64,000 nucleotides of DNA from a virus (IMGVR_UViG_3300032235_000911:1-64000); one strand, 5' to 3'; shown: positions 10,610 to 64,000, counted from the stretch's first letter. Program-made: numbers and translations. Notes: a model not told the origin generated them from the letters alone.

Positions 10610-11115
10610 AGTAAGTACCCTGCTTTCGCGATAGTTAGGCTATCGGCACGGTCGAAGGAACCCTGAACTGGGTTATCGAACTTGGTGTACTGTACCGTAA
10701 ACTGTGGCTCGTTGTCAAGCCAGTGCTTTAGAGTTATTTCTTTTGCATCCCCACCCTTTGGAACATTTATTCCGACCATTTTTCGTGCTTGACGGCAGGC
10801 TATATACTGTGGTCTAATAGAGAAGATTTCGTAGCACATCCAGGAAAGTATACCATTAAACCGGTTGAGGGTCATAATCGTATGCGCACTACTCTTGCCT
10901 TTGCTCATTACATTAAGGGTTTCTTCTATGAATATCTTAGTTATACTGTATTTGTTTTTTATAGTACTTAGTAGTTCTTTGGCTGCTACGCTCTTATCAA
11001 GAAAGTCTGTGTATTTATCTTTGCGGAGATCAAGCATTCCGCATTCTACTATTGTAGTGCCATCAAGAATGGTGTATCCTGTTATGGAAGTACTGATATC
11101 AAGTCCTAAAATCAT
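10582..11115 (-). CDS. RuvC-like Holliday junction resolvase
   Basis: N-terminal ILGLDISTSITG, IFIEE and C-terminal DRADS acidic motifs of the RuvC/RNase H fold. Confidence 0.8.
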   Translation of the reverse strand: MILGLDISTSITGYTILDGTTIVECGMLDLRKDKYTDFLDKSVAAKELLSTIKNKYSITKIFIEETLNVMSKGKSSAHTIMTLNRFNGILSWMCYEIFSIRPQYIACRQARKMVGINVPKGGDAKEITLKHWLDNEPQFTVQYTKFDNPVQGSFDRADSLTIAKAGYLLCQNQNSTS

Positions 11116-11789
11116 ATTACATAATCTTCTGGGTTGGCATTCACAGCCACTACCTTATATTGATTGGTATTATTTAAGGCTGGTGCGTCAAGTGTAACAC
11201 ATAAAACACCAGATATTTCAGTTAAATGGCTATGCATTATGTCTTTTACCCAATAGTTATTTTCTCTAATAGATACATCATACATAATATAGTCAAGCGA
11301 AGCCACTGGAAAGGCATCCCCTCCCAGTTGTGTCAATGGAAGAAATATAGTTGCCTGTCCACCAGCATCAAAGGAACCAGTTTGTATGTATTTTAGGCGG
11401 TTTACTGCATTTTTAGTTGCTTCTACGGCACCAGCAAGATCAAGAGGACTTGGGACCCAGTAGCCGTCACGAAACTTTAGATAATCGTCATTTACGGCAT
11501 TACTGGCCGAAACGTCAAGGAGGGCGTTGATTGATGCGCTAATGCTTGTATCGTAAATAACACTTGTGTTAACTTCTGTAACATTAAACTGTCTGGCGGT
11601 AACTGCGCCGCTAACTTCAAGATCGCCACCAATATATGTATTACTGGCACTCAGTGGTACGCCAATCGTTACCGAGCCAGAGGCAATGCTTCCGCTAACT
11701 TCAAATAGTTTATTGCCTTGCGCGTCTTCTTTGCTTATATTTTTCTTAAAAAGCGCGTCACTTAGAAATTTTACTGGTTTATTTGCCAT
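11112..11789 (-). CDS. Virion fibre/structural protein (paralog of 12334-13812)
   Basis: Beta-repeat GDLEVSGAVTA. The C-terminal ~100 aa align with the 492-aa protein (QTGSF..GQATI / KTGAF.SGQAII; SLDYIMYDV / SIDYIALDV; YKVVAVN / YRLLAVN). Confidence 0.7.
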   Translation of the reverse strand: MANKPVKFLSDALFKKNISKEDAQGNKLFEVSGSIASGSVTIGVPLSASNTYIGGDLEVSGAVTARQFNVTEVNTSVIYDTSISASINALLDVSASNAVNDDYLKFRDGYWVPSPLDLAGAVEATKNAVNRLKYIQTGSFDAGGQATIFLPLTQLGGDAFPVASLDYIMYDVSIRENNYWVKDIMHSHLTEISGVLCVTLDAPALNNTNQYKVVAVNANPEDYVI

Positions 11790-11810
11790 CTATGGTCCTT
11801 CTTTGCAATA

Positions 11811-11817
11811 TAAATAG
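11811..11817 (-). promoter_or_regulatory. Putative phage late promoter motif CTATTTA
   Basis: GACTATTTATA upstream of RBS AAGGA and ATG 11789; one of ten intergenic CTAWWTA copies. Confidence 0.6.
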
Positions 11818-11825
11818 TCAATAGA

Positions 11826-12119
11826 CTACTTAAACCACTCAACAACATTTAAATATTCATACCAGTTACGATCTTCGCGCTTTTGTTTGCTTTTTATTTT
11901 ACGAGCCTCGGTTACAAACTCTTTGCTGATACCTTTTAGCTTGACTTTTCTATCTAAAACAAGTAAAGTTATGTCAATAAGACGAATTATTTTTTGTAAA
12001 TGGGCTTTTTTTTCAAAATTTGACATTTTTTCTACATTTTCTTGATATTTTTTAGAATCCTGCAGTGTAATGTAAAATAAGTTAGCAATCCTGTTTAAAC
12101 TGAGCGCGTTTTTTAACAT
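11826..12119 (-). CDS. Basic hypothetical protein
   Basis: 97-aa ORF whose start overlaps the stop of the upstream 52-aa ORF. Confidence 0.6.
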   Translation of the reverse strand: MLKNALSLNRIANLFYITLQDSKKYQENVEKMSNFEKKAHLQKIIRLIDITLLVLDRKVKLKGISKEFVTEARKIKSKQKREDRNWYEYLNVVEWFK

Positions 12120-12271
12120 TTTTGAATCTCTTCTGTTATAAATTCTTTAAATTTGATAAGTTTTTGTTTTGTAACTTCTCGCGCTTTGATAATATCTGCT
12201 TTTTCTTTATTATTTGTAATAAAGACATATTGTTGTATCATTTCTTCAAGCATTTGTATGTATATTTGCAT
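12113..12271 (-). CDS. Small hypothetical protein, 52 aa (not in ORF track)
   Basis: Manual translation MQIYIQMLEEMIQQYVFITNNKEKADIIKAREVTKQKLIKFKEFITEEIQKC*. It fills the gap, its stop overlaps the next ATG, and the CTATTTA motif lies just upstream. Confidence 0.6.
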   Translation of the reverse strand: MQIYIQMLEEMIQQYVFITNNKEKADIIKAREVTKQKLIKFKEFITEEIQKC

Positions 12272-12275
12272 AATA

Positions 12276-12282
12276 TAAATAG
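12276..12282 (-). promoter_or_regulatory. Putative phage late promoter motif CTATTTA
   Basis: TTTCTATTTATATTATG, directly after the terminator and 4 nt before ATG 12271. Confidence 0.55.
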
Positions 12283-12309
12283 AAAGGGCCAGGGATTTCT
12301 CCCCAGCCC
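12283..12309 (-). terminator. Intrinsic terminator after the 492-aa fibre gene
   Basis: GGGCTGGGGA-GAAA-TCCCTGGCCC-TTTC: 10-bp stem with two G-U pairs and a GNRA loop. Confidence 0.7.
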
Positions 12310-12333
12310 AGTCTACTAAACTTTTAGTTTATA

Positions 12334-13812
12334 TTACCAGCTGAACTTGCCAGCCTTCTCATTTACTGCGAGTAGGCGGTAGTGGGTTGCTTCGGTGAGC
12401 GCATCAATTTGAACCTTGACTGCTTGACCGTCGACAAACATATGAACGGCAACTAGGTCGTTCATCCATTCGCCGCTTGCATCTTTGACCATAACATCAA
12501 GTGCGATGTAGTCGATGGAACCGATATCGAACATACCTTCTGCACCCTCAGCGGTTAGGCTGATGATTGCTTGACCTGATGCAAATGCACCGGTCTTTTG
12601 AACGCGGAGGTCTTCGTATGCAGCAATAACGGCAGTCTTGTTATCACCAACGTTGGTGTCAAGGAGTTTGATTGCCTTGGCAACATCGTAGTAACCTGCA
12701 CTCTCTGCACCGGTGATAACGACGAGTGAACCAGAAGCAGCAACTTTAAGTAGTGCGTCTGCTTCAACGTTAGCCGCAAAGCTTGCAGCACCTGCAACAT
12801 CTAGAGTGCTATCGAGGCCAACTGCACCAACAACATCAAGGGTGCTGTCAAGTGCAACTGCACCAGCAACATCTAGTGTTGAAGAGGCGGTAACTGCACC
12901 GGTTAGGGTTGAAGCGCCATCAACAGTTAGGGTGCCACCAATTTCTGCATAACCATCGGCTGAGAGGTTGCCACCGGCTGAGATATCAGAAGTTGCTGAA
13001 ACGCCACCGGTGATTGTTGCACCACCACCTGAGATGGTGAGGCCGGTGTCGGTTAGGGTTAGACCACCAGCGATTGATGCTGCTGCGCTAACGCTAAGTC
13101 CTGCTGTTGCGGTTACTGCGCCGTCAAAGTTTGCTGCGCCGTCGATTTGTAGTTCATCTTCGCCGGTGATCTTGCCAGCAACGCCGAGGGTGCTTGATAG
13201 TGAAGCTGCATCCATCACTGATAATTCACCAGTGATGCTCATGTCGCCTGCAACTGAACCGCTGCCTGCAACCGCTAAGTCGTGAGCAAGATTTACTTTC
13301 TTGTTCATATTCCAGCTGTCGTCAAGGGCTAAATACTCAAGTTTTGCATCTGCACCTTCAAGTTTGAAACCACCTTCGTCTGCTGCCGCTGCATTTGCTG
13401 CACCCTTTGCTGCAATGATAAGGGTATCGGTAACTTGGAGGTCTGAGCGGCTGATTGCATCAATTTGGCCGAGGACTTCGAGGTTGCCTTGGACGGTTAG
13501 TTTGCCACCGACATATGCGTCGTTAGCAACTGATAGTGCGCTTGCTGAAACTTGGACTGCTGAGGCGTCAAGGGCTGCGCCGGTGATGGTCATGCCGCTT
13601 TCTGCTGCAACTGCTGCTTCGAATGTTGCTGCGCCTCCGACATCAAGAGTACCTTGTAGATCTGCTGCACCAACGAGTGTTGATGCTCCGCCAACTGATA
13701 GTGCGTCGGCAATTGCTACGTCATGTTCAACTGATAGACCGGCTGAACCTGAGATAATTGCGCCTTGTTTTGCTTGTAGTTCAACTAGAACTTTTAATGG
13801 ATTAGCTGCCAT
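12334..13812 (-). CDS. Ala/Gly-rich beta-repeat virion fibre protein, probably abundant
   Basis: Tandem ~12-aa repeats (STLDVAGAVALD / STLDVVGAVGLD / STLDVAGAASFA) typical of trimeric beta-helix fibres; strong RBS AAGGAG and its own terminator. Confidence 0.75.
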   Translation of the reverse strand: MAANPLKVLVELQAKQGAIISGSAGLSVEHDVAIADALSVGGASTLVGAADLQGTLDVGGAATFEAAVAAESGMTITGAALDASAVQVSASALSVANDAYVGGKLTVQGNLEVLGQIDAISRSDLQVTDTLIIAAKGAANAAAADEGGFKLEGADAKLEYLALDDSWNMNKKVNLAHDLAVAGSGSVAGDMSITGELSVMDAASLSSTLGVAGKITGEDELQIDGAANFDGAVTATAGLSVSAAASIAGGLTLTDTGLTISGGGATITGGVSATSDISAGGNLSADGYAEIGGTLTVDGASTLTGAVTASSTLDVAGAVALDSTLDVVGAVGLDSTLDVAGAASFAANVEADALLKVAASGSLVVITGAESAGYYDVAKAIKLLDTNVGDNKTAVIAAYEDLRVQKTGAFASGQAIISLTAEGAEGMFDIGSIDYIALDVMVKDASGEWMNDLVAVHMFVDGQAVKVQIDALTEATHYRLLAVNEKAGKFSW

Positions 13813-13859
13813 TCCTTACTTTCTCCTTGCCCTCGCGAGGCGTGTGTTATAAAATACTA

Positions 13860-14456
13860 CTAAAATTCAATTACTTCGCGTAAACGGATAAGATAATCAT
13901 CTACGCTGTTCATACTTTTTGCGACATCTACTGCCATAGTACCAGATGGAATCGTTGGATCAACCGAGTGTAGGTCGACCACTGAACTTGACAAAAATGC
14001 AACAACTGAACCGCTTACTAACTCTGGTGATATAAATAGTTTGCCAGAATTATAAACATACGAAATACTTGCGCTATTTTGCCCGCCCTCTTTTGCAGTA
14101 AAGAACTGCGGTGTACCGATATAGAAATTATTTTGGATGTTTGCTGTATCAAGTACAACATTATCGGCGTACAATGTGCCATCGACGGATAGTTGACCTA
14201 TGACATCAACATTCCCGCTTAGATATGAGTTACCTGCAACATCAAGGATGCCATCAACCTGCAATGCACCGGCTTGTGCATAACCGGCGTTTTGCATCAC
14301 TCCACCTACTTCAAGATCGCCTTCAACTATTGCATCGCGTTTAACATGCAGACCTGTGCTTCCGCTTATGGAGCCGGAAACCATTAGGCCTTTTTTCATC
14401 GTAACCTTTTCGTTTATGAAAAGGTCACTAAGTACTTTCAATGGATTGAATGCCAT
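13860..14456 (-). CDS. Beta-repeat virion protein, short paralog (start revised to ATG 14456)
   Basis: MAFNPLKVLSDL matches the N-termini MAANPLKVLVEL and MANKPVKFLSD; EGDLEVGG and GILDVAGN repeats; ends with tandem TAG TAG. Confidence 0.7.
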   Translation of the reverse strand: MAFNPLKVLSDLFINEKVTMKKGLMVSGSISGSTGLHVKRDAIVEGDLEVGGVMQNAGYAQAGALQVDGILDVAGNSYLSGNVDVIGQLSVDGTLYADNVVLDTANIQNNFYIGTPQFFTAKEGGQNSASISYVYNSGKLFISPELVSGSVVAFLSSSVVDLHSVDPTIPSGTMAVDVAKSMNSVDDYLIRLREVIEF

Positions 14457-14504
14457 TAAAAAATTTTCCTTGCCATACAAGGCCGCAATTCTACTCTTAT
14501 ATAA

Positions 14505-14511
14505 TAATTAG
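14505..14511 (-). promoter_or_regulatory. Putative phage late promoter motif CTAATTA
   Basis: GAAACTAATTAT in the intergenic gap; same context as the 19672 copy. Confidence 0.55.
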
Positions 14512-14531
14512 TTTCTTGAAATATATTTTTA

Positions 14532-14801
14532 TTAAATATCTGACCACGCTGCAAACTCAGGTAGAGATTTTAGGTACGTATAGACTTCTACCCAAGAAAC
14601 ACCACCAGCATTTTCTATAAAATATTGCTTTTGCTGAACTGGCTCGCCTTGTGTCTCTCTTACTGATCGTGTCGCATAAAAATTTACAATTGCGTCAGTG
14701 TCATATTTTGTTGATGTCCCCACCATTATACGCGCATAGCATTGTGGATAAATTTCTTCAATCCCGTCTTTTTGTATTGTTAGGTTGCCTGTAAGTGCCA
14801 T
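14532..14801 (-). CDS. Small tail-fibre-associated protein (start revised to ATG 14801, 89 aa)
   Basis: RBS AAGGAG precedes MALTGNL. The C-terminal YTYLKSLPEFAAWSDI resembles small proteins typically encoded just downstream of tail-fibre genes. Confidence 0.65.
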   Translation of the reverse strand: MALTGNLTIQKDGIEEIYPQCYARIMVGTSTKYDTDAIVNFYATRSVRETQGEPVQQKQYFIENAGGVSWVEVYTYLKSLPEFAAWSDI

Positions 14802-14820
14802 TGTATTCTCCTTGTTCGTA

Positions 14821-17800
14821 TTATGCACCAATAATTAGTCGAGCAGAGCCACCAGTTGTTGTAAAAGAGCTAACTGATGCAATTTTTGTTGGATCTGTTG
14901 TTTTATCTGTGCATTGTAAAGATCCTGCCAACGATACTGCGCCGGTTCCAAGACCTGTTTTCTTAGATATAACTAATTTGCCGCCCGATATTGTATTTGG
15001 ACCAGTATGAGTATTCGCCGATGACAGTGTCCAAGTGCCAGTACCTTGTTTTGTGAGGCCAACTCCTGTGCCACCAATGGTCGTGGATATTACACCAGTC
15101 GACGTACCGGTAAGACCTACAGCAGAACCAGAAGATGAACTTATTATTCCATTGCAAGTTAAAGTTCCTGTACCTGATGCATCAAGAAAACCTAGAACTG
15201 TAAAGTCTCTATTTGTTGAAGCAGTTGGGCCTGTATATTTTAATGTTGTACCACTATAAAATGGCGAACCACCAGGAGCCGTTCCTAAAGCAGAAGGAAC
15301 TCCAATATTTGCAATATTATTTATTTCTAAAGTTCCGTCATAAAAATTAATCCCACGGTCATATGTACTAAGTCCTGTTAGTACAAGTGTGCCTGCTCCT
15401 GTTTTTCTAAAGTTTTCATATGATACGCCACCGACACCTTGATTTGTTATTGTACCAGAGAATGTAACTCGCGTATTTGCAGCAACATCAAAAATAGTTG
15501 GAGCGCCAGTAAAAGTATAAACATTTCTTGAAGTAGTTAAACCGTTTGCCCCAGCTGTAAAGAGTACGCGAATATCACCATAGGTAAAATCACTAGTTAG
15601 ATTAATTTGGCTTGTTCCACCAAGAGCATTTGCATTTGTTACATAAAGAAATATTGAGCGAATTTCTGTGCCAACATATTGGCGTGTCTGCCTAACATTT
15701 ATGGTGCCATGGGTTCCCGCTACTCCTAGAAATACGCTATATGGATCTGTTCTAGCAGCGTCAAATGTAGAATCCGTTATATTTAGGTTTCCATTATTTG
15801 TAATAGTGCCAGAACCAGTAATAGTTTGGCTTCCTCTGCTGCTTGGATTTAATATAGAAAGCGAAGCAACTGTAACAGCACCATTGACTGTCGCGGTTGA
15901 TGTATTTTGAGCGGTACTGAATGTAACATTGTCGCCATTATAGAAGCCAGTTCCACCACCAGAAAATGTAAAACCACTGTTTTGGTTATCATACCATAGG
16001 CCGCTTACTCCACCATTCCATGTAAGATTTGCAAGAGTTGCCTGTGGTGTTATATAAATAGCCGTAGATGTACTTCTAACTGTACCACTACCAATACGAG
16101 GATTAGCACTATCGGTCCAAGCCAACGCAAGAAACACGCTTGGGGGTGTAGATGTTGCAAATGTAGCGATTGCGTACTCAACGCCAGCCTTCCAGCCAGT
16201 ACCAGTACACCTAACCCCGAAACTGCCGAGAGCAGAGAATGTACCGGTTATAGCTATCTTGGAAGCTATATTTGTGTTCGGGTCAGCACCAGCTGAGATG
16301 ATTGATATCCCTGCGGCAGCTGTTACACTGCCGGAAATGGCAAGTGTTTGTCCTCCGCTGCCATTTCCAGAAATAAAATTACCGCCCTCGCCAAAGCCTA
16401 TATTGCCAATAATGGTTCCCGTACCATCCAAATAAGTAGGAGATGTTGAGATGCCACTTACGTCTAATTTGCCTAAAACAACTAAACCACTTACTGTGTC
16501 TAGATACGTTGGCGGAGTATTAAACTTAACACTACCGGCTCCTGTAATATATAACATTTGGCCGTTTAATCTTAAATCATAAATATTTAAAGTAGAGTTA
16601 ACGTCAGCTGTGAGATACGCGCCTCGCGTTAATGTTATTCTACCACCGAACGCAGGGGTTGTTGCTATATTTGGTACTGTCAATGAACGTAATGTGCCTC
16701 CTAAGCTCATTGGACCTGTTGTAATCGTCGATATATTTCCGTATAAACGTAATTGGGCACCATCACTAATAGTAGTTGTTAGTGTTGCCGTTGTTGTAGA
16801 TAGTGGATTATTGGTTGTGTAGGTTAGCGAGCCACCTTGAATGTTTATCGGAGAAGAAGTTTTATTTCCTCCCGGCCCTGCAAACGTTTGATTGTTTGAA
16901 CCAATTTTATTTATTGTAATTGTTCCGGTACCGTTTTGTATACCGCTATGGTATCCATCGTTTGCATAATCGCTGCCAATATAAGTTGTACCTTGAAGAG
17001 TAAGAGGACTGCCGCCGGTAATTGCGCCAATACGTACATCTCCTGACAGGGTTACACCAACTTGGTAATCGGTATCAAATGTAGCATTTTGTAAAGTGTA
17101 ATCGGATATGGTTGTCGTACCAGCGATGAAACGAAAGATACCAGCGAATTGGGAAGCATTAAGGGTATTGTAATTAAGCCCTAGAGCACCAGCTCCTTCT
17201 CTGCGAAATATTGCCGTTTTAGGACCAGTGATTACGCCGTTTAACGAATGTGATTTATTAACAGAAATGGTAACTTCGCCTGCATTTGGTATATTGAATT
17301 CGCCACTAAACGTTATCGGAGGAGCAGAGCTACCAGCAAAGCCTAAATTAACAGAGGACTTTATTATAAATTTATTTGGAACAACATATACGTTGGTACT
17401 AGCGCCAGTTGTAATTCCAAATGAACTATTTCCAGTTAAATTTTGAAATGTAATTGGACCCGTACCTAGAGTATCTCCATCAAAAACGGGACTTATCCAG
17501 CCACCGTTAACATCGATGCCTCCAGAAAAAGTATTAACTTGACCAGATACTCCGCCAAGACCGAGCATTCCAAGACCGGTTTTTACAATCTTACCAGTAC
17601 CAGTTATAGTTGGTGTTGAAATTCTAAAAGCTCTTGTTGTATATGTTGTTGGTGAAATTTCACAATAAATTGTCGTAGTTCCATCGATTGGAATTTGATA
17701 ACCACCTGCAATTGTCCATGGAAAAAATGTACTTGTAGTATCGAATGCATTAATGTTTCGAGGAAATTGAGTTAGGCTTAAGTTATTTTGTAAAGTTAAA

Positions 17801-17946
17801 GTTGCTTCTGCTGAAAGATTAAAATTATTTAAATTTAATGTATCCGTAGAAGAAGGCAAAATAGCTGTCGATGCACCATCTCTGAGCCATCCGCTAGTTG
17901 CGTTCCAGTTTCCACCTGCTGCACTTGTACGTGTATATACGGCCAT
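14821..17946 (-). CDS. Autotransporter-passenger-like beta-helix protein with PATR repeats (no signal peptide, no beta-barrel); putative receptor-binding fibre
   Basis: PATR/autotransporter-associated beta-strand repeats: IVKTGLGMLGLGG..NTFSGGIDVNGG, FRKTGAGTLVLTGLSTYDRGINFYDGTL, LTKQGTGTWTLSSANTHTGPNTISGGKL; also LTWNGGVSGLW...FYNGDNVTF. Confidence 0.8.
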   Translation of the reverse strand: MAVYTRTSAAGGNWNATSGWLRDGASTAILPSSTDTLNLNNFNLSAEATLTLQNNLSLTQFPRNINAFDTTSTFFPWTIAGGYQIPIDGTTTIYCEISPTTYTTRAFRISTPTITGTGKIVKTGLGMLGLGGVSGQVNTFSGGIDVNGGWISPVFDGDTLGTGPITFQNLTGNSSFGITTGASTNVYVVPNKFIIKSSVNLGFAGSSAPPITFSGEFNIPNAGEVTISVNKSHSLNGVITGPKTAIFRREGAGALGLNYNTLNASQFAGIFRFIAGTTTISDYTLQNATFDTDYQVGVTLSGDVRIGAITGGSPLTLQGTTYIGSDYANDGYHSGIQNGTGTITINKIGSNNQTFAGPGGNKTSSPINIQGGSLTYTTNNPLSTTTATLTTTISDGAQLRLYGNISTITTGPMSLGGTLRSLTVPNIATTPAFGGRITLTRGAYLTADVNSTLNIYDLRLNGQMLYITGAGSVKFNTPPTYLDTVSGLVVLGKLDVSGISTSPTYLDGTGTIIGNIGFGEGGNFISGNGSGGQTLAISGSVTAAAGISIISAGADPNTNIASKIAITGTFSALGSFGVRCTGTGWKAGVEYAIATFATSTPPSVFLALAWTDSANPRIGSGTVRSTSTAIYITPQATLANLTWNGGVSGLWYDNQNSGFTFSGGGTGFYNGDNVTFSTAQNTSTATVNGAVTVASLSILNPSSRGSQTITGSGTITNNGNLNITDSTFDAARTDPYSVFLGVAGTHGTINVRQTRQYVGTEIRSIFLYVTNANALGGTSQINLTSDFTYGDIRVLFTAGANGLTTSRNVYTFTGAPTIFDVAANTRVTFSGTITNQGVGGVSYENFRKTGAGTLVLTGLSTYDRGINFYDGTLEINNIANIGVPSALGTAPGGSPFYSGTTLKYTGPTASTNRDFTVLGFLDASGTGTLTCNGIISSSSGSAVGLTGTSTGVISTTIGGTGVGLTKQGTGTWTLSSANTHTGPNTISGGKLVISKKTGLGTGAVSLAGSLQCTDKTTDPTKIASVSSFTTTGGSARLIIGA

Positions 17947-17960
17947 TATAGTTTACTCCA

Positions 17961-18230
17961 TTAACTTAATAAGATTTTAAAAGCACTGCCCTCTTGATAT
18001 ACAGCGCCAGCAGTAAAGCTCGTGTTGTTTGCTATTGTTATATTTGTTGCACTGCCTGTTAGCGAACCTGTCCAAGTTATTAGAGTCCACACGCCAGCAG
18101 CATTAAATACGCTCGTATTTAATTCTATCACAAGACCACTGTTTATGTTTATGTTTCCGGTAACTTCAAGTGTGCCGCCAATTTGTATCGGTGGACCTAA
18201 TATTTTTTTAATAACTTTAACTAATGGCAT
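17961..18230 (-). CDS. Small beta-rich protein resembling an autotransporter autochaperone/junction segment
   Basis: TLEVTGNININSGLVIEL...AGVWTLITWTGSLTG pattern; own RBS AAGGA. Confidence 0.6.
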   Translation of the reverse strand: MPLVKVIKKILGPPIQIGGTLEVTGNININSGLVIELNTSVFNAAGVWTLITWTGSLTGSATNITIANNTSFTAGAVYQEGSAFKILLS

Positions 18231-18250
18231 TTTTGCTTTCCTTGTTTATT

Positions 18251-19594
18251 TTATAATACACCTTTAATAGTAAAGTATGCCTTGCTGCCGGTTGTTGTTG
18301 AAATTACTGTTACAAGATCATTTGCGGATACCGACGTTGGGAAGCTTGACGACACACTATTTTTCATAACATATGCACTTGCTGCGCCGCTACCTGTATA
18401 TTGTGAGAAAGCTTGCATTGTAAAGGCTCTTGGGCTAAGATAGTTTAATAATTCGCTGCCGCTTGTGATACTACCAGTAACTTCACCGGCAATATCATAT
18501 GGAGTACCGGTAATATTAGCGCCGTCACCAACAAATGATCCACGGAATTCTGCCGATCTTGCAGCAGGATATATTTCCATTTCGTCATTTACAGCGTCAT
18601 AGATAATACGTGCGTCTTCGCTTGGTACACTTCCAAATTGGATACCTGCTCCGTTTAGTACGGTTGCGTCTGTTGCACCGCTTGCAATAAGGATATATTT
18701 ATCTGTTATTTCAAGGTTGGTGCTATTGACACTTGTTGTTGTACCGTTGACGGTCATGTTACCGGCCACCGTTAGGTTACCATTAACTGCTGTAGTTCTT
18801 CCCGAAGCACCAATATTAACAGCGTTTGTATTTGTTGTACCAATATTAACGCTGCCGCTTGCAGTTCCGCCTGTACCGCCTCTTATTGTAACCGATCCGC
18901 CTGTTCCCTGTAGTGAGTTAGCGGCACCCCCCGCAAGTGTAATGCCGCCAGCAGTGTAGGAACCAGAAGTATTTGCCGTTCCTCCAATTATAGAATATGA
19001 AAAGCCGCTACCAGAATTAAATCCTACTGGCTGTAAAGTTGTGGAGAATGAAGGATTTGTTGTTATAATTGTCGAAGTAGTACCATTTATACGAGTAAGT
19101 AATGAAATGGATGTCGTCCATATATCACCATTTACGGGTGAAGTTGGATTAGATCCTGTGGGAATATTTAATGGTGCGCTTGCGGTGGTGGAAGCACGAA
19201 GTGTTTGTTTTGCCGTAAATGTATTACTGCCTGTTGTCGCATATGGTGTCAAGTCTTGCTGAATACCGGTAAGGCCGCTGCCGTCGCCAACAAATGTTCC
19301 GCTAAAGGAAGCCGTTACGCTATTAAGACTAATATTGTCCTTTAGGATAATTGGATCAAGCGAAGTTCCGCTGCCAGTTATATTACCAGAAGAAGAAACA
19401 GACGAGATGCCAGCAGAAGCACCAGGAATATATTTATCCTGTGCTGCGTTATATACAAGCGTCTCGCCGTCTGTGGGCAGGGTTGTTGAAATAGGAATAT
19501 TTTGAATGCCAACTACGATTGGGGCCATAAAAGACCCGCTTAGGTCTCCATTATAAGCAGACGCGCCTCTAATACCGTTTATTGTTACACTCAT
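18251..19594 (-). CDS. Ser/Thr/Gly-rich tail fibre/spike protein
   Basis: GNLTVAGNMTVNGTTTSVNSTNLEITDKYI fibre motif; modules shared with the 652-aa and 1162-aa proteins. Confidence 0.75.
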   Translation of the reverse strand: MSVTINGIRGASAYNGDLSGSFMAPIVVGIQNIPISTTLPTDGETLVYNAAQDKYIPGASAGISSVSSSGNITGSGTSLDPIILKDNISLNSVTASFSGTFVGDGSGLTGIQQDLTPYATTGSNTFTAKQTLRASTTASAPLNIPTGSNPTSPVNGDIWTTSISLLTRINGTTSTIITTNPSFSTTLQPVGFNSGSGFSYSIIGGTANTSGSYTAGGITLAGGAANSLQGTGGSVTIRGGTGGTASGSVNIGTTNTNAVNIGASGRTTAVNGNLTVAGNMTVNGTTTSVNSTNLEITDKYILIASGATDATVLNGAGIQFGSVPSEDARIIYDAVNDEMEIYPAARSAEFRGSFVGDGANITGTPYDIAGEVTGSITSGSELLNYLSPRAFTMQAFSQYTGSGAASAYVMKNSVSSSFPTSVSANDLVTVISTTTGSKAYFTIKGVL

Positions 19595-19671
19595 CTAAAA
19601 TGGTTCCTTGAACCAATGGTTCGAATAAATATAAAGGCATGAATAGTCACACTACGCATGCCGCCTTTATA

Positions 19672-19678
19672 TAATTAG
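19672..19678 (-). promoter_or_regulatory. Putative phage late promoter motif CTAATTA followed by a structured leader
   Basis: GAAACTAATTATATA followed by hairpin GGCATGCGTAGT-GTG-ACTATTCATGCC (19636-19662). Confidence 0.55.
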
Positions 19679-19696
19679 TTTCTAAAATAAGTTTTT

Positions 19697-21655: not shown

Positions 21656-21666
21656 TTAGCTACTCT

Positions 21667-22977: not shown

Positions 22978-22991
22978 ATTTATATCTCACT

Positions 22992-23459
22992 TTATATTTC
23001 TTCGTATACGCTACCTACTGATTCAACTGTATTTAATAATATCGTATTTTGGTCTACTTGGTTAGTACTTGGAGTACCAGGAGATCTCCAATATATATAT
23101 TTATTATTAGCTGTGTTTCTTGCTCTCATTAACCAAACAATGGTACTTAGTTTATCAGGATAAAACTTTCCCATTCTCTGTAGGTAGACAAGATCTGCGC
23201 TAGCTCCACCTTGAGACAATGCCGTAGCTGGCATTCTCTGTAGGTAGACAAGATCTGCGCTAGCTCCGCCTTGTGCCAATGCTTCTGACGGCATTCTTTG
23301 TAAATAAATCGCATCAAGGTTCGCCGCCAGCATAGCAACACTAGAAGACTCCTCTTGGATACTGCCCGTTACATACTGAAATGACGCACTATCATACAAT
23401 ATAAGTGCATTATCTGGCCAGAGAGAAGTACTGCCCGAAGCTAAATAATATTCTGACAT
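22992..23459 (-). CDS. Hypothetical virion protein with a 20-aa tandem repeat
   Basis: 155 aa containing three YLQRM units 20 residues apart. Confidence 0.7.
   Translation of the reverse strand: MSEYYLASGSTSLWPDNALILYDSASFQYVTGSIQEESSSVAMLAANLDAIYLQRMPSEALAQGGASADLVYLQRMPATALSQGGASADLVYLQRMGKFYPDKLSTIVWLMRARNTANNKYIYWRSPGTPSTNQVDQNTILLNTVESVGSVYEEI
23172..23315. repeat. 60-bp in-frame tandem repeat (~2.4 copies)
   Basis: The 36-nt block cattctctgtaggtagacaagatctgcgctagctcc is identical at 23172 and 23232; a diverged third copy starts at 23292. Confidence 0.9.
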
Positions 23460-23465
23460 ATTTTA

Positions 23466-24998: not shown

Positions 24999-25030
24999 TT
25001 ATAAACTCCTTAATGTATATTCTCTACAAA

Positions 25031-25037: not shown

Positions 25038-25048
25038 TCGATAAATAT

Positions 25049-55315: not shown

Positions 55316-56301
55316 TAGTTTACCTTGTTGTATATACTGTTTACATATTTTGGGCTAGAGGCGTCAAAATATTCTTTTATTAGAAGCTGGAACTTCATAT
55401 TATTATTTATAATATCTGGTATTATCTTACTAAATAGCTCTGTTGATATTAATGGGCTATTTTCCTCCATTGGTTTATCACTAATGGCCTTACCAGTGTT
55501 TAGAGCGTGTTTATGACTCGCAAACGTATTATTTAATTTTGTTTGTAGATCTATGAAATTAGACATGGATGACTGGACTTCTTGTATCGTCGATATGATA
55601 TTTTTTAATAATTCCAATAAATTATTGCCTTTAACCATCGGCTGAAGTTCGTTTGAAGGATCAGGATTATCATAACCAGCAATTATATCTATTCCGTTTA
55701 ACATTGGATCTTCGCCAGAAGATAGTTGTGCAAGATGCTGTGTTACAATTTTAACATTTTCTCTGCCTATAAGACGAATACAATCTGCCTTTGCAGCAAA
55801 GGCAGATCGGTTATCTGTATTCTCTAGCTCGTATCCCTCAAAGCCTTCAAGTTTAACTTTTACTTTTGGTAAGTTAAAGTAACTATCTATGTTTCCTCTT
55901 TGCGTTAAGTATATTCTTGCGGAATCTATTTCAAAATTCTTAGAAGAGAAATAAGCTTGACCATTGACCTTATCTATTGGGCGTAAACCCATGTGACCTG
56001 CAACAATATCTATTGCGCTAGCACCTGTTTGCCCTACTCCGCCTTTGCCGCTACCGACACCAGCAAAACGATCATTACCAAGAATTATCATGGAATTATT
56101 TTTTCCACGAATAACCTTTTCAGCTGATGTTTGTTCATAGTTGGTTGTTATCTCATCCCGCGCTGTGTTATTTACACCAGATTGTAAGGTAAAAGCTTGC
56201 GTGGCATCGATAGCAATTTTTCTAATAATATCGACTACTTCTGGGCTCAGGAAGGCGTTTCTTTCTTCCAGCTGCGAGTTTAATTTTTTTTCTTCTGCCA
56301 T
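55315..56301 (-). CDS. Baseplate central spike-like protein (start probably ATG 56301)
   Basis: Beta-strand repeats (IILGNDR, AIDIVAG, RIYLTQR, KADCIRLIGRENVKIVT), PMVKGNNL and C-terminal HxH (SHKH) as in the metal-binding tips of P2 gpV/phi92 gp138-type spikes. Confidence 0.6.
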   Translation of the reverse strand: MAEEKKLNSQLEERNAFLSPEVVDIIRKIAIDATQAFTLQSGVNNTARDEITTNYEQTSAEKVIRGKNNSMIILGNDRFAGVGSGKGGVGQTGASAIDIVAGHMGLRPIDKVNGQAYFSSKNFEIDSARIYLTQRGNIDSYFNLPKVKVKLEGFEGYELENTDNRSAFAAKADCIRLIGRENVKIVTQHLAQLSSGEDPMLNGIDIIAGYDNPDPSNELQPMVKGNNLLELLKNIISTIQEVQSSMSNFIDLQTKLNNTFASHKHALNTGKAISDKPMEENSPLISTELFSKIIPDIINNNMKFQLLIKEYFDASSPKYVNSIYNKVN

Positions 56302-57881
56302 TAAATAAACCTCTTCCCGTCCCAAAATTTATCGGGTTCATTCCAGACTGAACTTTTATCTCTATCGTAAACAGTCAATAATAACTCTTTATACGAATAA
56401 CCTTTAACTATTTTTATAGGTTTTGTGAAGATATGCCAATTTGCAAGCAGCGGATCGCTATTTTTAAAGAAAAATAGTCGAGGATCTGACGCCACAAAAC
56501 CAAAGTCTTTAAGTATTTGAGTTATATCTATCACGTGACGATCTATTTTAATAATCTCTGGCTTGTCTAGCTTATATGTATTTTTTATTGAGTAAATATC
56601 AATTACCTGTTTAGTTGGTTTATACTTTATCTCGTTTAAATCTATTACTTTCTTACAATTTCCATATATCTTCAAGCCATATCCACCGGGTACGCGCCTC
56701 GTGTAATCTGGTCCGATAAAATAATCGTCTGTTTCGATGTTCGAATCTACCGTTAGCGCCGCATACGGATTTAAATTTATCTGCAAGCCAACGCGCCCAA
56801 GACTTGAGATTTTTTTATTATCTAATCTAGTATCTATAAAATCACACAATAGAGGTATACCGTAGGTATTTAATATTTCTTTTATTTGTATAATATCTTT
56901 GGCTATATCTTCTCTGGCTTTTATATATTGTGCATTAAACTTTCTTGTGCTTTTTATACCCTTTGGATAATCAATCGGCACATCTAATATTTTCATCTTT
57001 GGAAATGTTGATGGAGGACTTTGCGTTACTTTGACCTTTTGAAGTGGCTGTGCAGTAGGAAGATCAAGAACGGCAGGACGGTCAGATACTACCGCTAATC
57101 TAGGATCGCAGTCTGGATCTGTTGCTTCTATAGAAGGTGCAGAATCAAAGTCTACCGTGCCATTATTATTTGTTATGTACCGCCAGTCAGCATATGCATG
57201 ATTTCCATATAAAGTTCTCTTCGGTATCTCCTCTTGAGACTGGGTCGGTCGCTCAAATTTTTGAACAAATATCGTTGCTGCTTTTTTTATGCTTGTCAGA
57301 CTTTTCATCGGCACCAGCGTGTTTGTCTTATAATCAGTTTTTAATTCATGAATTAAAAAAGCAAGTTGCCCTTTTATTGTTCTATAATCTTCCCCGTTAT
57401 CGCTGCACCATTTTTTAAGATTAGTAAACCTACCTCCTCTTGTTTTAAATTGATCAATATGCGTACCTTCTTGCCACGGTTGATTATTTTTTAGTACTGG
57501 TGGTTTATCATTAAACAATATATGGATCAACCAAGCCCGTCTTTCTTCCGCGCTTGTCTGCTCTCCTTTCTGGATCTTTCTTTTATAAGTATCAGAGAGG
57601 GCTTTATTTGCTGGATCGTAATTTGTTTTTTCGATTGGATCAATCCACTGTGCTAAACCATAAGCACCTGTGCCGTTAGCTTTGTCGATATAAGAATAAT
57701 GTGCAGACTCAAGGCGCAGATTGCCAACAATGCCAGCCGCTGCCTGCGGGGTACAGCCAAGCTGTTTAATAAATAAATCTATCATGTATACTTCTAAAGC
57801 TCTATTGTCTACCGATAGACTATCTCCGCTTCTCTTTTTATCTTTAAGTTTTGTCTTTATTTCATCTGTGTTCATGCTCAT
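56301..57881 (-). CDS. Phage tail lysozyme (Phage_lysozyme2-like) fused to a degenerate M15-peptidase-like domain
   Basis: QAAAGIVGNLRLES, AYGLAQW, QLAFLIHEL and FVQKFERP motifs; the C-terminal domain has an M15-like layout. Confidence 0.8.
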   Translation of the reverse strand: MSMNTDEIKTKLKDKKRSGDSLSVDNRALEVYMIDLFIKQLGCTPQAAAGIVGNLRLESAHYSYIDKANGTGAYGLAQWIDPIEKTNYDPANKALSDTYKRKIQKGEQTSAEERRAWLIHILFNDKPPVLKNNQPWQEGTHIDQFKTRGGRFTNLKKWCSDNGEDYRTIKGQLAFLIHELKTDYKTNTLVPMKSLTSIKKAATIFVQKFERPTQSQEEIPKRTLYGNHAYADWRYITNNNGTVDFDSAPSIEATDPDCDPRLAVVSDRPAVLDLPTAQPLQKVKVTQSPPSTFPKMKILDVPIDYPKGIKSTRKFNAQYIKAREDIAKDIIQIKEILNTYGIPLLCDFIDTRLDNKKISSLGRVGLQINLNPYAALTVDSNIETDDYFIGPDYTRRVPGGYGLKIYGNCKKVIDLNEIKYKPTKQVIDIYSIKNTYKLDKPEIIKIDRHVIDITQILKDFGFVASDPRLFFFKNSDPLLANWHIFTKPIKIVKGYSYKELLLTVYDRDKSSVWNEPDKFWDGKRFI

Positions 57882-61140: not shown

Positions 61141-61143
61141 CGG

Positions 61144-61901: not shown

Positions 61902-61933
61902 AAAGAGCATAACAAAAAGACTCATTATTTTCA

Positions 61934-61969
61934 CTAAATTGCTGATAGTGCTTGGTCTGATAGTGTCAT
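61934..61969 (-). pseudogene. 11-codon stub MTLSDQALSAI*, a duplicate of the N-terminus of the 61144-61326 gene
   Basis: ATG ACA CTA TCA GAC CAA GCA CTA TCA GCA ATT TAG with strong RBS AAGGAG; 10/11 aa identical to [11 protein letters not shown]. Confidence 0.8.
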
Positions 61970-61970
61970 T

Positions 61971-62525
61971 TTATTCTCCTTTTTTACATACTATTTTTAG
62001 TATTGCATTTTTTGCTGGGTATGGGTTTCTGTCATCATTGATTCTTGAAATATCACAAAAGCCATTTTTCTCTAAAAGATCTTTTAAGCTACTAAAGTTA
62101 AATCCATTTACGTGTCCCATACCTTTAACTTTGTACTCACTTTGGTTATGAAAACCGCCAAAAACATAAGACATTGCATTTTTCCAAGGATCATCTGTAG
62201 GGTTTAACCAGCCTACATTTGCATGTTGCAACCAATCTCCTTTAATAATTCTCTCTGCAACCCATTGAATATCGGGTACTGTAATTTCTAATACTGCATT
62301 TTTTTTTAAAATGCGCTTGACCTCAGTTAAAACACGATCGAGGTCAAATATATAAATATGTTCTAAGACATCCCCCATATAAGCTTTACTAAAGGTTTCA
62401 CTAACAAAAGGGTAAGGAGTTTCTAATAAATCGTGAACGCAATTCACTCCTTCCCAAGAATTAATATCCATTCTGATATCAGCATCAGATTTTGGAGAAG
62501 GCCCAGAGCCTATATCAATTATCAT
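61971..62525 (-). CDS. Class I SAM-dependent methyltransferase (type 11-like)
   Basis: IDIGSG motif I, RMDI, DVLEHI and EVKRILKKNAVLEITVP. Confidence 0.85.
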   Translation of the reverse strand: MIIDIGSGPSPKSDADIRMDINSWEGVNCVHDLLETPYPFVSETFSKAYMGDVLEHIYIFDLDRVLTEVKRILKKNAVLEITVPDIQWVAERIIKGDWLQHANVGWLNPTDDPWKNAMSYVFGGFHNQSEYKVKGMGHVNGFNFSSLKDLLEKNGFCDISRINDDRNPYPAKNAILKIVCKKGE

Positions 62526-62571
62526 TTATTTTCATCCTTTAATTGCTGAATTGTCATAAAATCATTTTTGC

Positions 62572-63525
62572 TTAACATATTAACTCCAATATTTTTTCAA
62601 CAGCAAAGCTTGTAGTATAATAATTTAACACAAACTGTTTGGCCTTTTCAACTTTATCTTCGTCTCTGTCAAAGTGATATATTAGTTTCATTAATTCTTG
62701 TCTTGTTGTATAAGTTTGCCCATAATTTTTCATTTCTTTTGCGCCAGCAATCTCTCTAGAAATCCAGGGAGTCTTATTTAAGACTGCTTCTAATAGAACA
62801 AGACCAAAGCCTTCATGAGTAGAATTCATTATATATAAATCAGCTTCAAAAATAGCATTTAATACCTCTTGACGATCTTCTAATAAAATTGAACGAATTT
62901 TATTTGTATTTTTTGGCATCAAATCAGAATTTTGATATCCCGTTAAAACAAGCGTTGTATCCTTAATAGGTACTCGTAAATATAGTTCACATAATTCTTC
63001 CATACCTTTATGTGGCCAAAAACCACCAGAGCTAAGAAACATTTTAGGAGTATTAATACCGTATTTTTTTTTAAATCCAGATACTCCTACCGATATTTTT
63101 GGATTTATAGATATTGGTATATGTTTAGCTTTATTATATACATTATATTTTTCAACATGTTTCCAGTCTGCTTCAGTACAACATCCAATATATTTAACAT
63201 CATGTAGAGCTTTAATGCAGACATCTGAATCAGAAGGTAGAATTATTAAATATAATATTGGACTTTTTATATTTTTAGCATTTGACAGAACAAAATTTTG
63301 AATAGCTACATCGCCACCATGAACTACGATTAAATCAAAAGATTCTTTTAAAATTGACACATCTGAGGTAACTTTTACACTATTTAAGTTACCATTATGT
63401 AAGCCAGTAAAAACAGTTACATCGTTGCCTTGCGCTACTGTTTCTTCTGCTAAATCTCTAATATGATTTTCGCTACCGCCAGGATAAGGTGCATATCGAT
63501 GCACAACATATAATATTTTCTTCAT
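62572..63525 (-). CDS. Glycosyltransferase, GT-B fold (GT4-like)
   Basis: YAPYPGGSE, GFWPHKG and EGFGLVLLEA (EX7E). Confidence 0.88.
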   Translation of the reverse strand: MKKILYVVHRYAPYPGGSENHIRDLAEETVAQGNDVTVFTGLHNGNLNSVKVTSDVSILKESFDLIVVHGGDVAIQNFVLSNAKNIKSPILYLIILPSDSDVCIKALHDVKYIGCCTEADWKHVEKYNVYNKAKHIPISINPKISVGVSGFKKKYGINTPKMFLSSGGFWPHKGMEELCELYLRVPIKDTTLVLTGYQNSDLMPKNTNKIRSILLEDRQEVLNAIFEADLYIMNSTHEGFGLVLLEAVLNKTPWISREIAGAKEMKNYGQTYTTRQELMKLIYHFDRDEDKVEKAKQFVLNYYTTSFAVEKILELIC

Positions 63526-63526
63526 A

Positions 63527-64000
63527 TTATTTTTCTAAATTATTTTTTAAAATAGGAACTCTATTATACTGATGAACTATGAAAAATTCATCAGTATTTT
63601 GATTTAAAACTCTATCTGATATTATTTTTGGTTGTGGCTCTAAAATATATTTAGAAAAATTAAATGGCGAAACTTCCATTTTTGTTGGATCTAATGTTGT
63701 ACCGCACTGGCAGCACCAACCTGATGCGAAATCAGCAAAAAAAACCTCTTCTTTATAAGCAGTTTGTATCAAGAAGTTAAATGCAGCCTGATCCGGTGCA
63801 AAATATTTGTGTTCAACGCACATAGAAAAAATGTTCATGCATAAATCTTGTATGCGATTTTTTTCTCCGGCAAACGAACCAGCATTATAGCTTGGTTTAT
63901 CTTTTATAAAGTCAAAAAAATAACCAAAAGATTGTTTAAAATCATTTTCTGCCCATTTTTCATCTTTATATTTTATACATTCACTACCTGCTACTATTTT
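63527..64000 (-). CDS. GT-A-like glycosyltransferase/nucleotide-sugar transferase-related protein (5'-partial)
   Basis: The frame stays open upstream of the track start to the window edge (KIVAGSECIKYKDEKW...YNAGSFAG...). NAG, DQAAFN and IVHQY motifs resemble GT8-like enzymes. Confidence 0.6.
   Translation of the reverse strand, partial: KIVAGSECIKYKDEKWAENDFKQSFGYFFDFIKDKPSYNAGSFAGEKNRIQDLCMNIFSMCVEHKYFAPDQAAFNFLIQTAYKEEVFFADFASGWCCQCGTTLDPTKMEVSPFNFSKYILEPQPKIISDRVLNQNTDEFFIVHQYNRVPILKNNLEK

Follow-up and report, generated by a model that had tools for sequence, protein, structure and literature searches.

Is a tripeptide that recurs in the fibre proteins of an uncultured lake phage a mark at which the phage's own glycosyltransferases (GTs) attach sugars, or is it part of the architecture of the fibres? 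The DNA that raises this question is a window of 64,000 nucleotides at the start of a 95.6-kb contig; the phage is T4-like, with a genome of about 193 kb. Judged by portal protein, its nearest relatives in culture are the Flavobacterium phage immuto and the Microcystis phage Mel-JY01. The contig is 49% complete, and the MCP and tube genes are absent from it. A sequence-only reading had proposed that the motif [ST][AGS]S is a glycosylation sequon across positions 11112–64000 and that a gene cluster at the end of the window builds a methylated glycan coat on the virion. That range is far wider than the motif signal, which is confined to 11112–29412 plus 46112–47521. The reading ranked first here, by a narrow margin, keeps the central idea: the motif may be a glycosylation sequon on outward-facing virion proteins, read by a soluble GT4 pair that the clade encodes, an explanation that is possible rather than probable. 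Motif statistics, gene content, synteny and clade co-occurrence were computed; we infer every chemical step and the connection between motif and enzyme.

In the outer fibre proteins, [ST][AGS]S is over-represented about threefold. Expected counts are the means of 2000 residue shuffles per protein. About ten adjacent fibre-like genes carry the motif at 2.5–4.5 times the level of whole-protein and local shuffles, and the excess persists when residues are shuffled inside blocks of 15 or 30 residues. The 652-aa fibre (19697–21655, on the minus strand like every gene placed within the window below) holds 35 copies against 11.1 expected (z 7.9), with TAS nine times and the reversed SAT never; these are the counts given earlier, and the enrichment outlasts the correction for composition that had been asked of it. 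Its paralogue, the 447-aa fibre (18251–19594), has 16 against 6.1 and contains the module TASfsgtfvGDGSgLTGI. The block begins with a 225-aa protein (11112–11789; 6 against 0.8) and includes a 206-aa protein that weakly matches a bactofilin-like beta-helix (13860–14480; 5 against 0.8, all S[AGS]S). Further carriers are a 436-aa protein (21667–22977; 22 against 4.9), a 155-aa protein (22992–23459; 4 against 0.9), a 510-aa protein (23466–24998; 7 against 2.1, T..S five times and S..T once), a 1162-aa tail fibre assigned to phrog_16641 (25107–28595; 36 against 11.1) and a 266-aa protein (28612–29412; 10 against 2.4, T..S six times and S..T never). Residues 552–884 of the 1162-aa fibre resemble tailspike domains of other phages, and its segment TASyassaaTASyvnpltq is present in immuto too. 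The 469-aa protein of the baseplate module (46112–47521) gives a weak signal (6 against 1.9, p about 0.01). A CTATTTA motif lies upstream of several structural genes, including those of the 225-aa and 266-aa proteins.

The carriers are largely unrelated to one another. In an all-against-all BLASTP comparison, only the 447-aa and 652-aa fibres are paralogous, apart from a 26-aa module common to the 447-aa and 1162-aa fibres, and the 436-, 266-, 510- and 469-aa proteins match no other carrier. The motif therefore occurs in unrelated contexts, as the sequence-only reading had it, both in beta-rich proteins and in a predicted coiled coil. The latter is the 436-aa protein, for which one long helix is predicted at residues 48–190 (pLDDT 55–74). 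It has heptads such as I-SSS-LAN and L-TAS-YNY, in which the motif would occupy positions e, f and g by the analyst's reading. An internal negative control is provided by the 1041-aa fibre of the PATR (autotransporter-passenger-type) beta-helix class (14821–17946), which is rich in Ser, Thr and Gly yet not enriched (7 against 8.5; T..S three times, S..T six times). The 2032-aa and 1860-aa baseplate proteins, the gp6-like wedge, gp25 and the portal are not enriched either. The claim that the motif is scarce in terminase, primase and nuclease holds as an absence of enrichment only: the counts lie at expectation (terminase 1 against 0.8, primase 0 against 0.5, Mre11/Rad50-like nuclease 1 against 1.7) and indicate no depletion.

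The pattern is also directional and narrowly defined. Across the genes at 18251–29412, T[AGS]S occurs 61 times and S[AGS]T 13 times (binomial p = 1.4e-8). In four genomes, the enrichment of S[AGS]S and T[AGS]S is 3–4.6-fold, while S[AGS]T and T[AGS]T stand at 0.44–0.78 of expectation, with the exception of S[AGS]T in Mel-JY01 (1.7-fold). Only Ser occupies the third position, and the middle residue is Gly (about fivefold enriched) or Ala (about fourfold); Asp in the middle is depleted in one of the four genomes and missing altogether from the other three. The flanks are hydrophobic at 56% of −1 and 50% of +1 positions, against a background of 32%, and a low-confidence structure model places the motif on beta-strands. 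Among homologues of the 652-aa fibre (58–75% identity), motif residues are more conserved than other Ser, Thr, Ala and Gly residues; each homologue has five or six motifs at new columns, which partly replace those lost.

The signal extends to relatives of the phage, among whose hosts are Flavobacterium and Microcystis. In each of the six clade genomes examined, 3–8 ORFs reach Poisson P < 1e-3 for [ST][AG]S, and in all six a PD-(D/E)XK nuclease and two GT4 genes form a syntenic triplet. The four T4-like controls (T4, S-H25, DSL-LC02 and DLP_6) have neither an enriched ORF nor the GT4 pair, and RM378 combines one of the two GTs with an intermediate motif signal. The co-occurrence expected by the sequence-only reading is thus observed, but it is not phylogenetically independent because the contrast is one of clade against non-clade genomes; no clade member without the pair was found. 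The clade sheaths, which are unrelated to the fibres, hold 51 motifs against 17.4 expected, compared with 9 against 6.3 in outgroup sheaths, and 32 of the 40 sheath motif columns occur in a single genome. When the sheath is divided into the equivalents of the T4 gp18 domains, the excess is found only in the outer ones (I, 30 against 8.7; II, 18 against 6.1; III, 3 against 3.9; IV, 0 against 1.3). The clade MCP has 27 against 10.3, with internal motifs, and the portal 1 against 4.8.

The putative enzymes belong to an operon larger than the window shows. Inside the window lie its last gene, which encodes a 184-aa SAM-dependent methyltransferase (61971–62525), a 317-aa GT4 (62572–63525) and the C-terminal 157 residues of a 269-aa protein (63527–64000; 63527–64336 on the contig). 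Beyond it follow a 645-aa GT4+GT2 fusion (64338–66275), a 422-aa GT4 (66277–67545), a GDP-mannose 4,6-dehydratase (67508–68494) and, as the operon's first gene, the PD-(D/E)XK nuclease (68485–69246). The methyltransferase and the GT4 noticed earlier at the end of the window are confirmed; the label "GT-A-like" for the 269-aa protein traces to a weak lead, a neighbouring Atlas cluster with Nucleotid_trans in 10% of its members, and the protein itself has no Pfam match and falls in a family made up of viral sequences only. PF00534 is matched by the 317-, 645- and 422-aa proteins at 44.7, 39.5 and 40.9 bits (cut-off 26.4), and PF00535 by residues 466–563 of the 645-aa protein at 39.9 bits against 23.3, as confirmed in six frames. 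The dehydratase matches PF16363 at 398 bits over model positions 1–332 of 332 and TIGR01472 at 393 bits, just under the equivalog cut-off of 415. The Atlas neighbours of the 422-aa GT4 are 87–100% viral, and no orthologue of the 317-aa GT4 was found in the "phages" collection. None of the six sugar-cluster proteins has a hydrophobic 19-mer above KD 1.3, and Pfam detects no flippase, polymerase, priming transferase or export gene in the operon. A host O-antigen or capsule pathway of the Wzx/Wzy or ABC type does not fit a cluster with no membrane protein, although a lipid-linked intermediate of the host could still be a substrate for the soluble GTs.

If the motif is a sequon, the pattern read would be hydrophobic-[Ser/Thr]-[Gly/Ala]-Ser-hydrophobic, and its readers the 422-aa GT4 and, in the 645-aa protein, the N-domain. 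One GT4 would prime the motif serine in the cytoplasm, and the glycan would then be extended by the other GT4 of the pair together with the fused GT2 domain, the 317-aa GT4 and perhaps also the 269-aa protein. The dehydratase would supply a GDP-6-deoxyhexose precursor, the methyltransferase would cap the sugar, and the fibres would then assemble bearing a short methylated glycan. Composition-corrected enrichment, direction, unrelated carriers and restriction to outer domains would be expected of a sequon and are found, whereas dependence on the enzyme, which would be expected too, is not. The soluble cluster, with no flippase, polymerase or priming transferase in the operon, is likewise counted in favour, as are the clade-wide synteny of the GT4 pair, the viral Atlas neighbours of the 422-aa GT4, the conservation of motif residues in homologues of the 652-aa fibre and the published nucleoside analysis of immuto DNA. 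Counted against it are the hydrophobic flanks, the unenriched Ser/Thr-rich PATR fibre, the lack of CTATTTA inside the GT operon and the fact that no glycan has been seen. Where O-glycosylation is known, the tails and serine-rich repeats that bear it are flexible. A search of the literature for this phage and its relatives in culture turned up no proteomic data.

The main difficulty for the sequon is phage G069 (34,027 bp, CheckV 99% complete), which contradicts dependence on the enzyme. Its 1326-aa fibre has 63 copies of [ST][AG]S against 13.7 expected (4.6-fold), with T[AG]S 39 times and S[AG]T four times. Six-frame searches of G069 detect no PF00534 or PF00535, Pfam finds no GT domain in the 20 ORFs scanned, and BLAST gives no match to the GT cluster of the window. 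The motif therefore persists undiminished in a phage in which no GT is detected. Homology of G069 to immuto is limited to the fibre cassette (30–42% identity), in which the two share the fibre and four small downstream genes. Enrichment that persists in relatives lacking GTs had been named as a point against a virion glycan coat, and the near-complete G069 is in part such a case; what stands of that proposal is the directional, fold-independent enrichment and the conserved soluble GT cluster. The link between motif and GTs remains a tentative one, well short of an even chance, because G069 keeps the motif and no glycan has been observed.

G069 fits more readily with the motif as a structural element of outer virion proteins, the GT operon having another target, most probably a glycan of the host envelope or else some soluble acceptor. 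This explanation ranks second and also falls short of probable. The small Gly or Ala would allow a tight turn or close packing, and the Ser/Thr hydroxyls would cap strands, form polar ladders in trimeric beta-fibres or line the e/g flanks of coiled coils. The hydrophobic flanks, the strict third Ser and the conservation of motif positions among close homologues agree with such a role. In the fibres of more than 120 IMG/VR contigs, [ST]AS[YF] occurs 1326 times against 28 expected, in regular 6- and 9-residue repeats, and this regularity looks like a structural shaft repeat, which would move between phages with fibre cassettes; TASY fibres also turn up on fragments from phages whose genomes are estimated at 47–83 kb. 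GT genes of aquatic T4-like phages are, moreover, usually read as serving host-surface modification (PMC12801897). A structural role leaves unexplained, however, why, in this clade alone, a directional tripeptide was gained independently at lineage-specific positions in the outer sheath and MCP domains, the recurrence of that tripeptide in helical and beta contexts, and the lack of any enriched ORF in T4, two cyanophages and DLP_6. It would also leave without a substrate a virus-specific GT pair conserved across Flavobacterium and Microcystis phages, in an operon without a membrane or export component.

The lineage-specific gains affect unrelated proteins, which suggests a factor that acts in trans, and this factor might be other than a GT. 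A fibre-assembly chaperone borne on the cassette, or a phosphorylating or acylating enzyme, might read the motif, the GT cluster being unrelated to it. The four small cassette genes common to G069 and immuto could include chaperones, which would explain how the motif is kept without GTs. This is doubtful: Pfam and PHROGs reveal no kinase, acyltransferase or chaperone family in the window, a fibre chaperone does not account for the enrichment of sheath and MCP, and the other cassette proteins of G069 are unenriched. Finally, the cluster might glycosylate the DNA of the phage, giving hypermodified bases like those of T4 or Thanatos, with the motif unrelated. Sources on phage GTs describe DNA as a common target (PMC12619734; PMC12838424), a nuclease gene heads the operon, and the CTATTTA that precedes structural genes is absent there. 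DNA glycosylation is nevertheless unlikely, and by far the least favoured explanation, because of the published LC-UV-MS/MS of immuto DNA: it reports peaks for dA, dC and dT and for one modified nucleoside, fdPreQ1, in place of dG, with no sugar-bearing nucleoside described, in a phage that has the orthologous GT pair (PMC10516641). Nor is the T4 type matched in gene content, as PF00303 (the ThyA-family hydroxymethylase) is found neither in the 49%-complete contig nor in Mel-JY01, which has ThyX.

The sequon, still ranked first, can be set beside several known systems. Virion O-glycosylation of the mycobacteriophages Che8, Corndog and Myrna (Freeman et al. 2023, Cell Host Microbe, as cited in PMC12619734) likewise involves phage-encoded soluble GTs, which are proposed to act in the host cytoplasm on structural proteins of the phage itself. 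There, according to that citation, the glycans were shown by mass spectrometry on C-terminal tails of capsid and tail-tube subunits, whereas the candidate acceptors here are internal tripeptides in fibres (and, in relatives, in outer sheath and MCP domains) of a T4-like aquatic myovirus known by sequence. The proposed acceptor is thus not a Ser/Thr-rich C-terminal tail of the mycobacteriophage type. In the GtfA/GtfB and SdgA/SdgB systems, soluble GT4-fold enzymes add the first sugar to serines in short, repeated Ser-small-Ser contexts, and other GTs then lengthen the glycan, with no lipid carrier or oligosaccharyltransferase. Their substrates, however, are long disordered repeats exported by accessory Sec or sortase, while the motif here is dispersed in folded fibre domains and forms no dipeptide repeat. 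NCBIfam scores are far below cut-off (GtfA, TIGR02918, 16 bits against 575; SdgA, 23 against 800) and no better than those to many other GT4s, and the window's Pfam results include no SecA2/SecY2, so that a serine-rich-repeat system of the GtfA/GtfB type does not apply. Giant viruses (chlorovirus Vp54 and mimivirus fibrils, as described in PMC4691112) resemble the phage by gene content: virus-encoded nucleotide-sugar enzymes, several GTs and methyl-modified sugars serve virion surface structures without host-type export machinery, but these are eukaryotic viruses with other GT families and other sites (atypical N-linked in Vp54). By description, the autotransporter heptosyltransferases (Aah/AIDA-I and TibC/TibA) are also alike, as they are soluble, work in the cytoplasm on many Ser/Thr of an adhesin with a beta-helix, and recognise a short structural motif instead of a disordered tail. 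They differ in belonging to another GT family, and the window's own PATR beta-helix fibre is the one fibre in which the motif is not enriched.

The tripeptide [ST][AGS]S, which the sequence-only reading had proposed as a possible O-glycosylation sequon of virion proteins, occurs in the 652-aa fibre exactly as counted there (35 copies, with TAS nine times and the reversed SAT not at all). Compared with 2000 residue shuffles, it is in excess by 2.6- to 4.5-fold in the 447-, 652-, 436-, 1162- and 266-aa proteins (all p ≤ 0.0005) and, more weakly, in the 225-, 206-, 155-, 510- and 469-aa proteins. The excess stays intact when shuffling is restricted to blocks of 15 or 30 residues that keep local composition, and the enrichment thus withstands composition correction at both scales. 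The non-palindromic forms are directional, with 61 T[AGS]S against 13 S[AGS]T (p = 1.4e-8). The carriers are otherwise unrelated, as had been supposed: in an all-versus-all BLASTP comparison, paralogy is confined to the 447- and 652-aa proteins, and the 436-, 266-, 510-, 1162- and 469-aa proteins have no detectable mutual similarity except a 26-aa GDGS module. The motif codons are diverse, which argues for selection at the protein level; a cause at the DNA level was considered and is ruled out by the many different codons in use.

No enrichment is seen, by the same 2000 shuffles, in both giant baseplate proteins, the wedge, gp25, lysozyme, portal, terminase, primase and nuclease. The motif had been called scarce in the last three, but all of these proteins lie at expectation and are not depleted. 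The PATR beta-helix fibre is likewise at expectation (7 versus 8.5). This 1041-aa protein with autotransporter-passenger repeats (14821–17946) lies among the fibres without the excess of its neighbours, and it may be a recent arrival in the block.

The stretch covers the first 64 kb of a virus contig that is 95,644 bp long and has a CheckV completeness of 49%, and the same 652-aa protein is present on a second contig of 192,879 bp. Every long ORF in the window is on the minus strand. By Pfam and PHROGs, its genes include a T4-type portal (2–1891), large terminase (1895–3469), Mre11/Rad50-like fusion (6259–9390), primase (9671–10609), RuvC-like resolvase (10582–11115), gp6-like baseplate wedge (47521–49338), gp25 (49328–49705) and tail lysozyme (56301–57881), and the 492- and 1162-aa proteins match tail fibres. 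In the fusion, a 1043-aa ORF, an N-terminal calcineurin-like phosphoesterase domain (Mre11/gp47-like) is joined to an AAA_23/SMC_N ATPase (Rad50/gp46-like), two functions encoded by separate genes in T4. The G+C content of the fibre block (11000–29500) is 40–43%, compared with 34–36% in the adjoining baseplate module (29500–56000), which fits fibre cassettes of different origin. Past the window, contig positions 69983–73860 encode an HNH endonuclease, a PIN-PhoH fusion, an adenylosuccinate lyase and a SpoU-type RNA methylase.

In the phage collection, neither megablast with 21 kb of the window nor tblastn with the 652-aa fibre and the 317-aa GT4 gave a match. Judged by the portal, the closest cultured relatives are Microcystis phage Mel-JY01 (45.8% identity) and phage vB_FspM_immuto (39.5%) of Flavobacterium sp. 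LMO8, and Rhodothermus phage RM378 is a more distant one. The clade is large, since a portal profile search of IMG/VR finds at least 589 relatives.

Dissection of the motif in four clade genomes shows S-x-S and T-x-S enriched 3.0–4.6-fold and S-x-T and T-x-T at 0.44–0.78-fold, with the exception of S-x-T in Mel-JY01 (1.7-fold). At the middle position, G is enriched about 5-fold, A about 4-fold and S about 1.7-fold; T, V, N, L and P do not exceed expectation, and D is absent in three of the four genomes and depleted in the fourth. The motif is therefore [ST]-[GA]-S, in which the last position is strictly serine. Hydrophobic residues precede it in 56% and follow it in 50% of cases, against a background of 32%. 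Comparison of the 652-aa fibre with its homologues gives identity fractions of 0.88, 0.82 and 0.70 for motif residues and of 0.72, 0.61 and 0.59 for other S, T, A and G residues, and each homologue has 5–6 motifs at new columns. An 805-aa ORF of Mel-JY01 (PP395634, 635–3052) runs in the direction opposite to that elsewhere in the clade, with 76 S[AGS]T versus 12 T[AGS]S.

The 436-aa protein (whole-model mean pLDDT 38.6) has one predicted helix, residues 48–190, at pLDDT 55–74, outside which the model is without even moderate confidence. On a heptad reading of this helix, the motif would occupy the flanking, exposed positions e, f and g. For the 652-aa fibre, AlphaFold2 on a seven-sequence alignment gave a model with a mean pLDDT of 42.8 that is confident in its C-terminal domain alone. 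PDB sequence searches with the 652-, 1162- and 447-aa fibres, the 645-aa glycosyltransferase (GT) and one ORF of the IMG/VR genome G069 gave no match.

The motif also reaches proteins unlike fibres. The sheath gene is not on this contig; its clade orthologues have a conserved fold, no similarity to the fibres and 51 motifs versus 17.4 expected, whereas the sheaths of T4, S-H25 and RM378 together have 9 versus 6.3. The clade MCPs carry 27 versus 10.3 expected and the portals 1 versus 4.8. Of 40 sheath motif columns, 32 are unique to one genome, which suggests that turnover maintains the motif density; the variable domains, however, cannot be aligned with certainty. The sheath motifs were assigned to T4 gp18 domains using boundaries that we take to be those of Aksyuk et al. 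2009, giving observed/expected values of 30/8.7 for domain I, 18/6.1 for II, 3/3.9 for III and 0/1.3 for IV. On that mapping, the excess would be confined to the equivalents of the outer domains.

The sugar gene cluster at the end of the window includes, as first described, a methyltransferase and a GT4. The third label, "GT-A-like" for the 269-aa protein, is a lead rather than a result: Pfam gives no match, the protein falls in virus-only Atlas clusters, and one neighbouring cluster carries Nucleotid_trans in 10% of its members. Beyond the window, the cluster continues with the rest of the 269-aa protein, a 645-aa GT4+GT2 fusion, a 422-aa GT4, a GDP-mannose 4,6-dehydratase and a PD-(D/E)XK nuclease. 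None of the six cluster proteins has a hydrophobic segment, and genes for a flippase, a polymerase or a priming transferase are absent from the cluster. The 422-aa GT4 has Atlas neighbours that are 87–100% viral. Its orthologue is split into adjacent N-half and C-half ORFs in Mel-JY01 (83441–84932) and G052 (62690–64209). In the GT operon, scanning for promoters and terminators gave results at shuffle level. The element CTATTTA(T)A, a candidate late-promoter element, lies about 20–30 nt upstream of several structural genes (11817, 29440, 33723 and 49720, minus strand), occurs 24 times on the coding strand versus 9 on the other, and is absent inside the GT operon.

Immuto, Mel-JY01 and three IMG/VR genomes of 90–95% completeness (G045, G050 and G052) retain the gene order nuclease, 422-type GT4, 645-N-type GT4. 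This GT pair is found on every clade fragment long enough for it, and no examined clade member has lost it. The accessory sugar genes vary: immuto has aminotransferases, an acetyltransferase and an epimerase, and this phage has the dehydratase. Eleven genomes were compared under uniform ORF calling, an ORF being significant for [ST][AG]S at Poisson P<1e-3. The six clade genomes have 3–8 significant ORFs each, with 39–151 motifs observed versus 6–31 expected. T4 has none (gp34, gp35 and gp36 at expectation; gp37 with 8 versus 4.9, not significant), nor do S-H25, DSL-LC02 and DLP_6, the last two with one unrelated GT1 gene each; RM378 has two and only an orthologue of the 422-aa GT4. The separation is clean, but the co-occurrence is not independent evidence, because one clade is compared with everything else.

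The TAS portion of the signal is part of a much wider phenomenon in phage fibres. A DNA pattern of three spaced [ST]AS[YF] units matches at least 120 IMG/VR stretches, against about 5 estimated by chance, and the best ORFs of the first set listed contain 1326 [ST]AS[YF] versus 28 expected and 17 in reverse. Many of these ORFs form regular 9- and 6-residue units of the TASYVxxAQ type, which look like a shaft repeat. Contrary to what was expected of T4-like cyanophages, no such repeats were found in P-SSM2, S-H25, ACG-2014f, S-SKS1, S-CBS2 and DSL-LC02. A TASY-repeat fibre used as a tblastn query, with the repeats masked, matched only through its 54-aa N-terminal domain, and the small phages found in this way carry that domain only.

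Among the matches listed, four of the five genomes that are at least 90% complete have a 422-type GT4 (G045, G060, G067 and G072). The fifth, G069 (IMGVR_UViG_3300044620_001538; 34,027 bp, 99% complete), encodes a terminase, a portal and an XkdF-type protease. In its 1326-aa fibre, [ST][AG]S occurs 63 times versus 13.7 expected, T[AG]S prevailing over S[AG]T by 39 to 4, with the same hydrophobic flanks. Neither PF00534/PF00535 (six frames), nor a GT domain (20 ORFs scanned), nor a BLAST match to the cluster was found in G069. Its relation to the clade is limited to the fibre cassette, at 30–42% identity to that of immuto. This five-gene cassette (fibre, 519-aa, 89-aa, ConA-like 258-aa and 92-aa proteins), common to G069 (6469–13506) and the 160-kb immuto (137955–142812), is an exchange between unrelated phage types. 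Relatives that keep the enrichment without GTs had been named as a ground for refuting glycosylation, and G069 is in part such a case. The other G069 virion proteins show no enrichment. A second candidate, G033, was dropped since its pattern match is out of frame.

We tentatively propose that this globally distributed clade of aquatic T4-like phages, with its at least 589 IMG/VR portal relatives, glycosylates outward-facing parts of fibre, sheath and capsid at a hydrophobic-[ST]-[GA]-S sequon read by the virus-specific, soluble GT4 pair. Two observations support a clade-encoded reader of the motif: convergent, directional, outward-facing gains in unrelated proteins, and a conserved virus-specific soluble GT pair without another substrate in sight. 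That the motif is purely structural is a serious, though slightly less probable, alternative, to which the regular repeats, the hydrophobic flanks, the strict third serine and the GT-less G069 all point. In the absence of the enzymes, a motif that was a sequon only should have decayed at G069's divergence; an undetected GT in its unknown ORFs, a host enzyme or the missing 1% of its genome are possible escapes. Reading of the motif by some other trans-acting factor is considered rather unlikely.

Least probable by far is a role of the GT cluster in DNA modification. In LC-UV-MS/MS of immuto DNA, peaks for dA, dC and dT were accompanied by one unknown nucleoside, identified as fdPreQ1, which replaces dG (PMC10516641). 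This nucleoside bears no sugar, and that analysis describes no sugar-bearing nucleoside (PMC10516641). Mel-JY01 encodes ThyX and lacks an enzyme of the ThyA type. These findings make it unlikely that the conserved GT pair glycosylates DNA.

If the motif is structural, it represents a repeat pattern that is very widespread in phage fibres and has not been described before. If it is a glycosylation site, fibre glycans could influence adsorption, stability and grazing as well as how host defences recognise the phage, and a simple, searchable sequon would make glycosylated virion surfaces predictable from metagenomes. The cultured relatives immuto and Mel-JY01 make the idea directly testable. Phage virion glycosylation is reported only for mycobacteriophages in the literature searched, and the proposed system, if true, would be the first outside the actinobacteriophages in which tailed phages direct protein glycosylation by a sequon. 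In the same literature, GT genes of aquatic T4-like phages are read as having host-surface or DNA functions; with the motif as a glycosylation site, the large sugar-gene islands of these phages would instead serve the virion.
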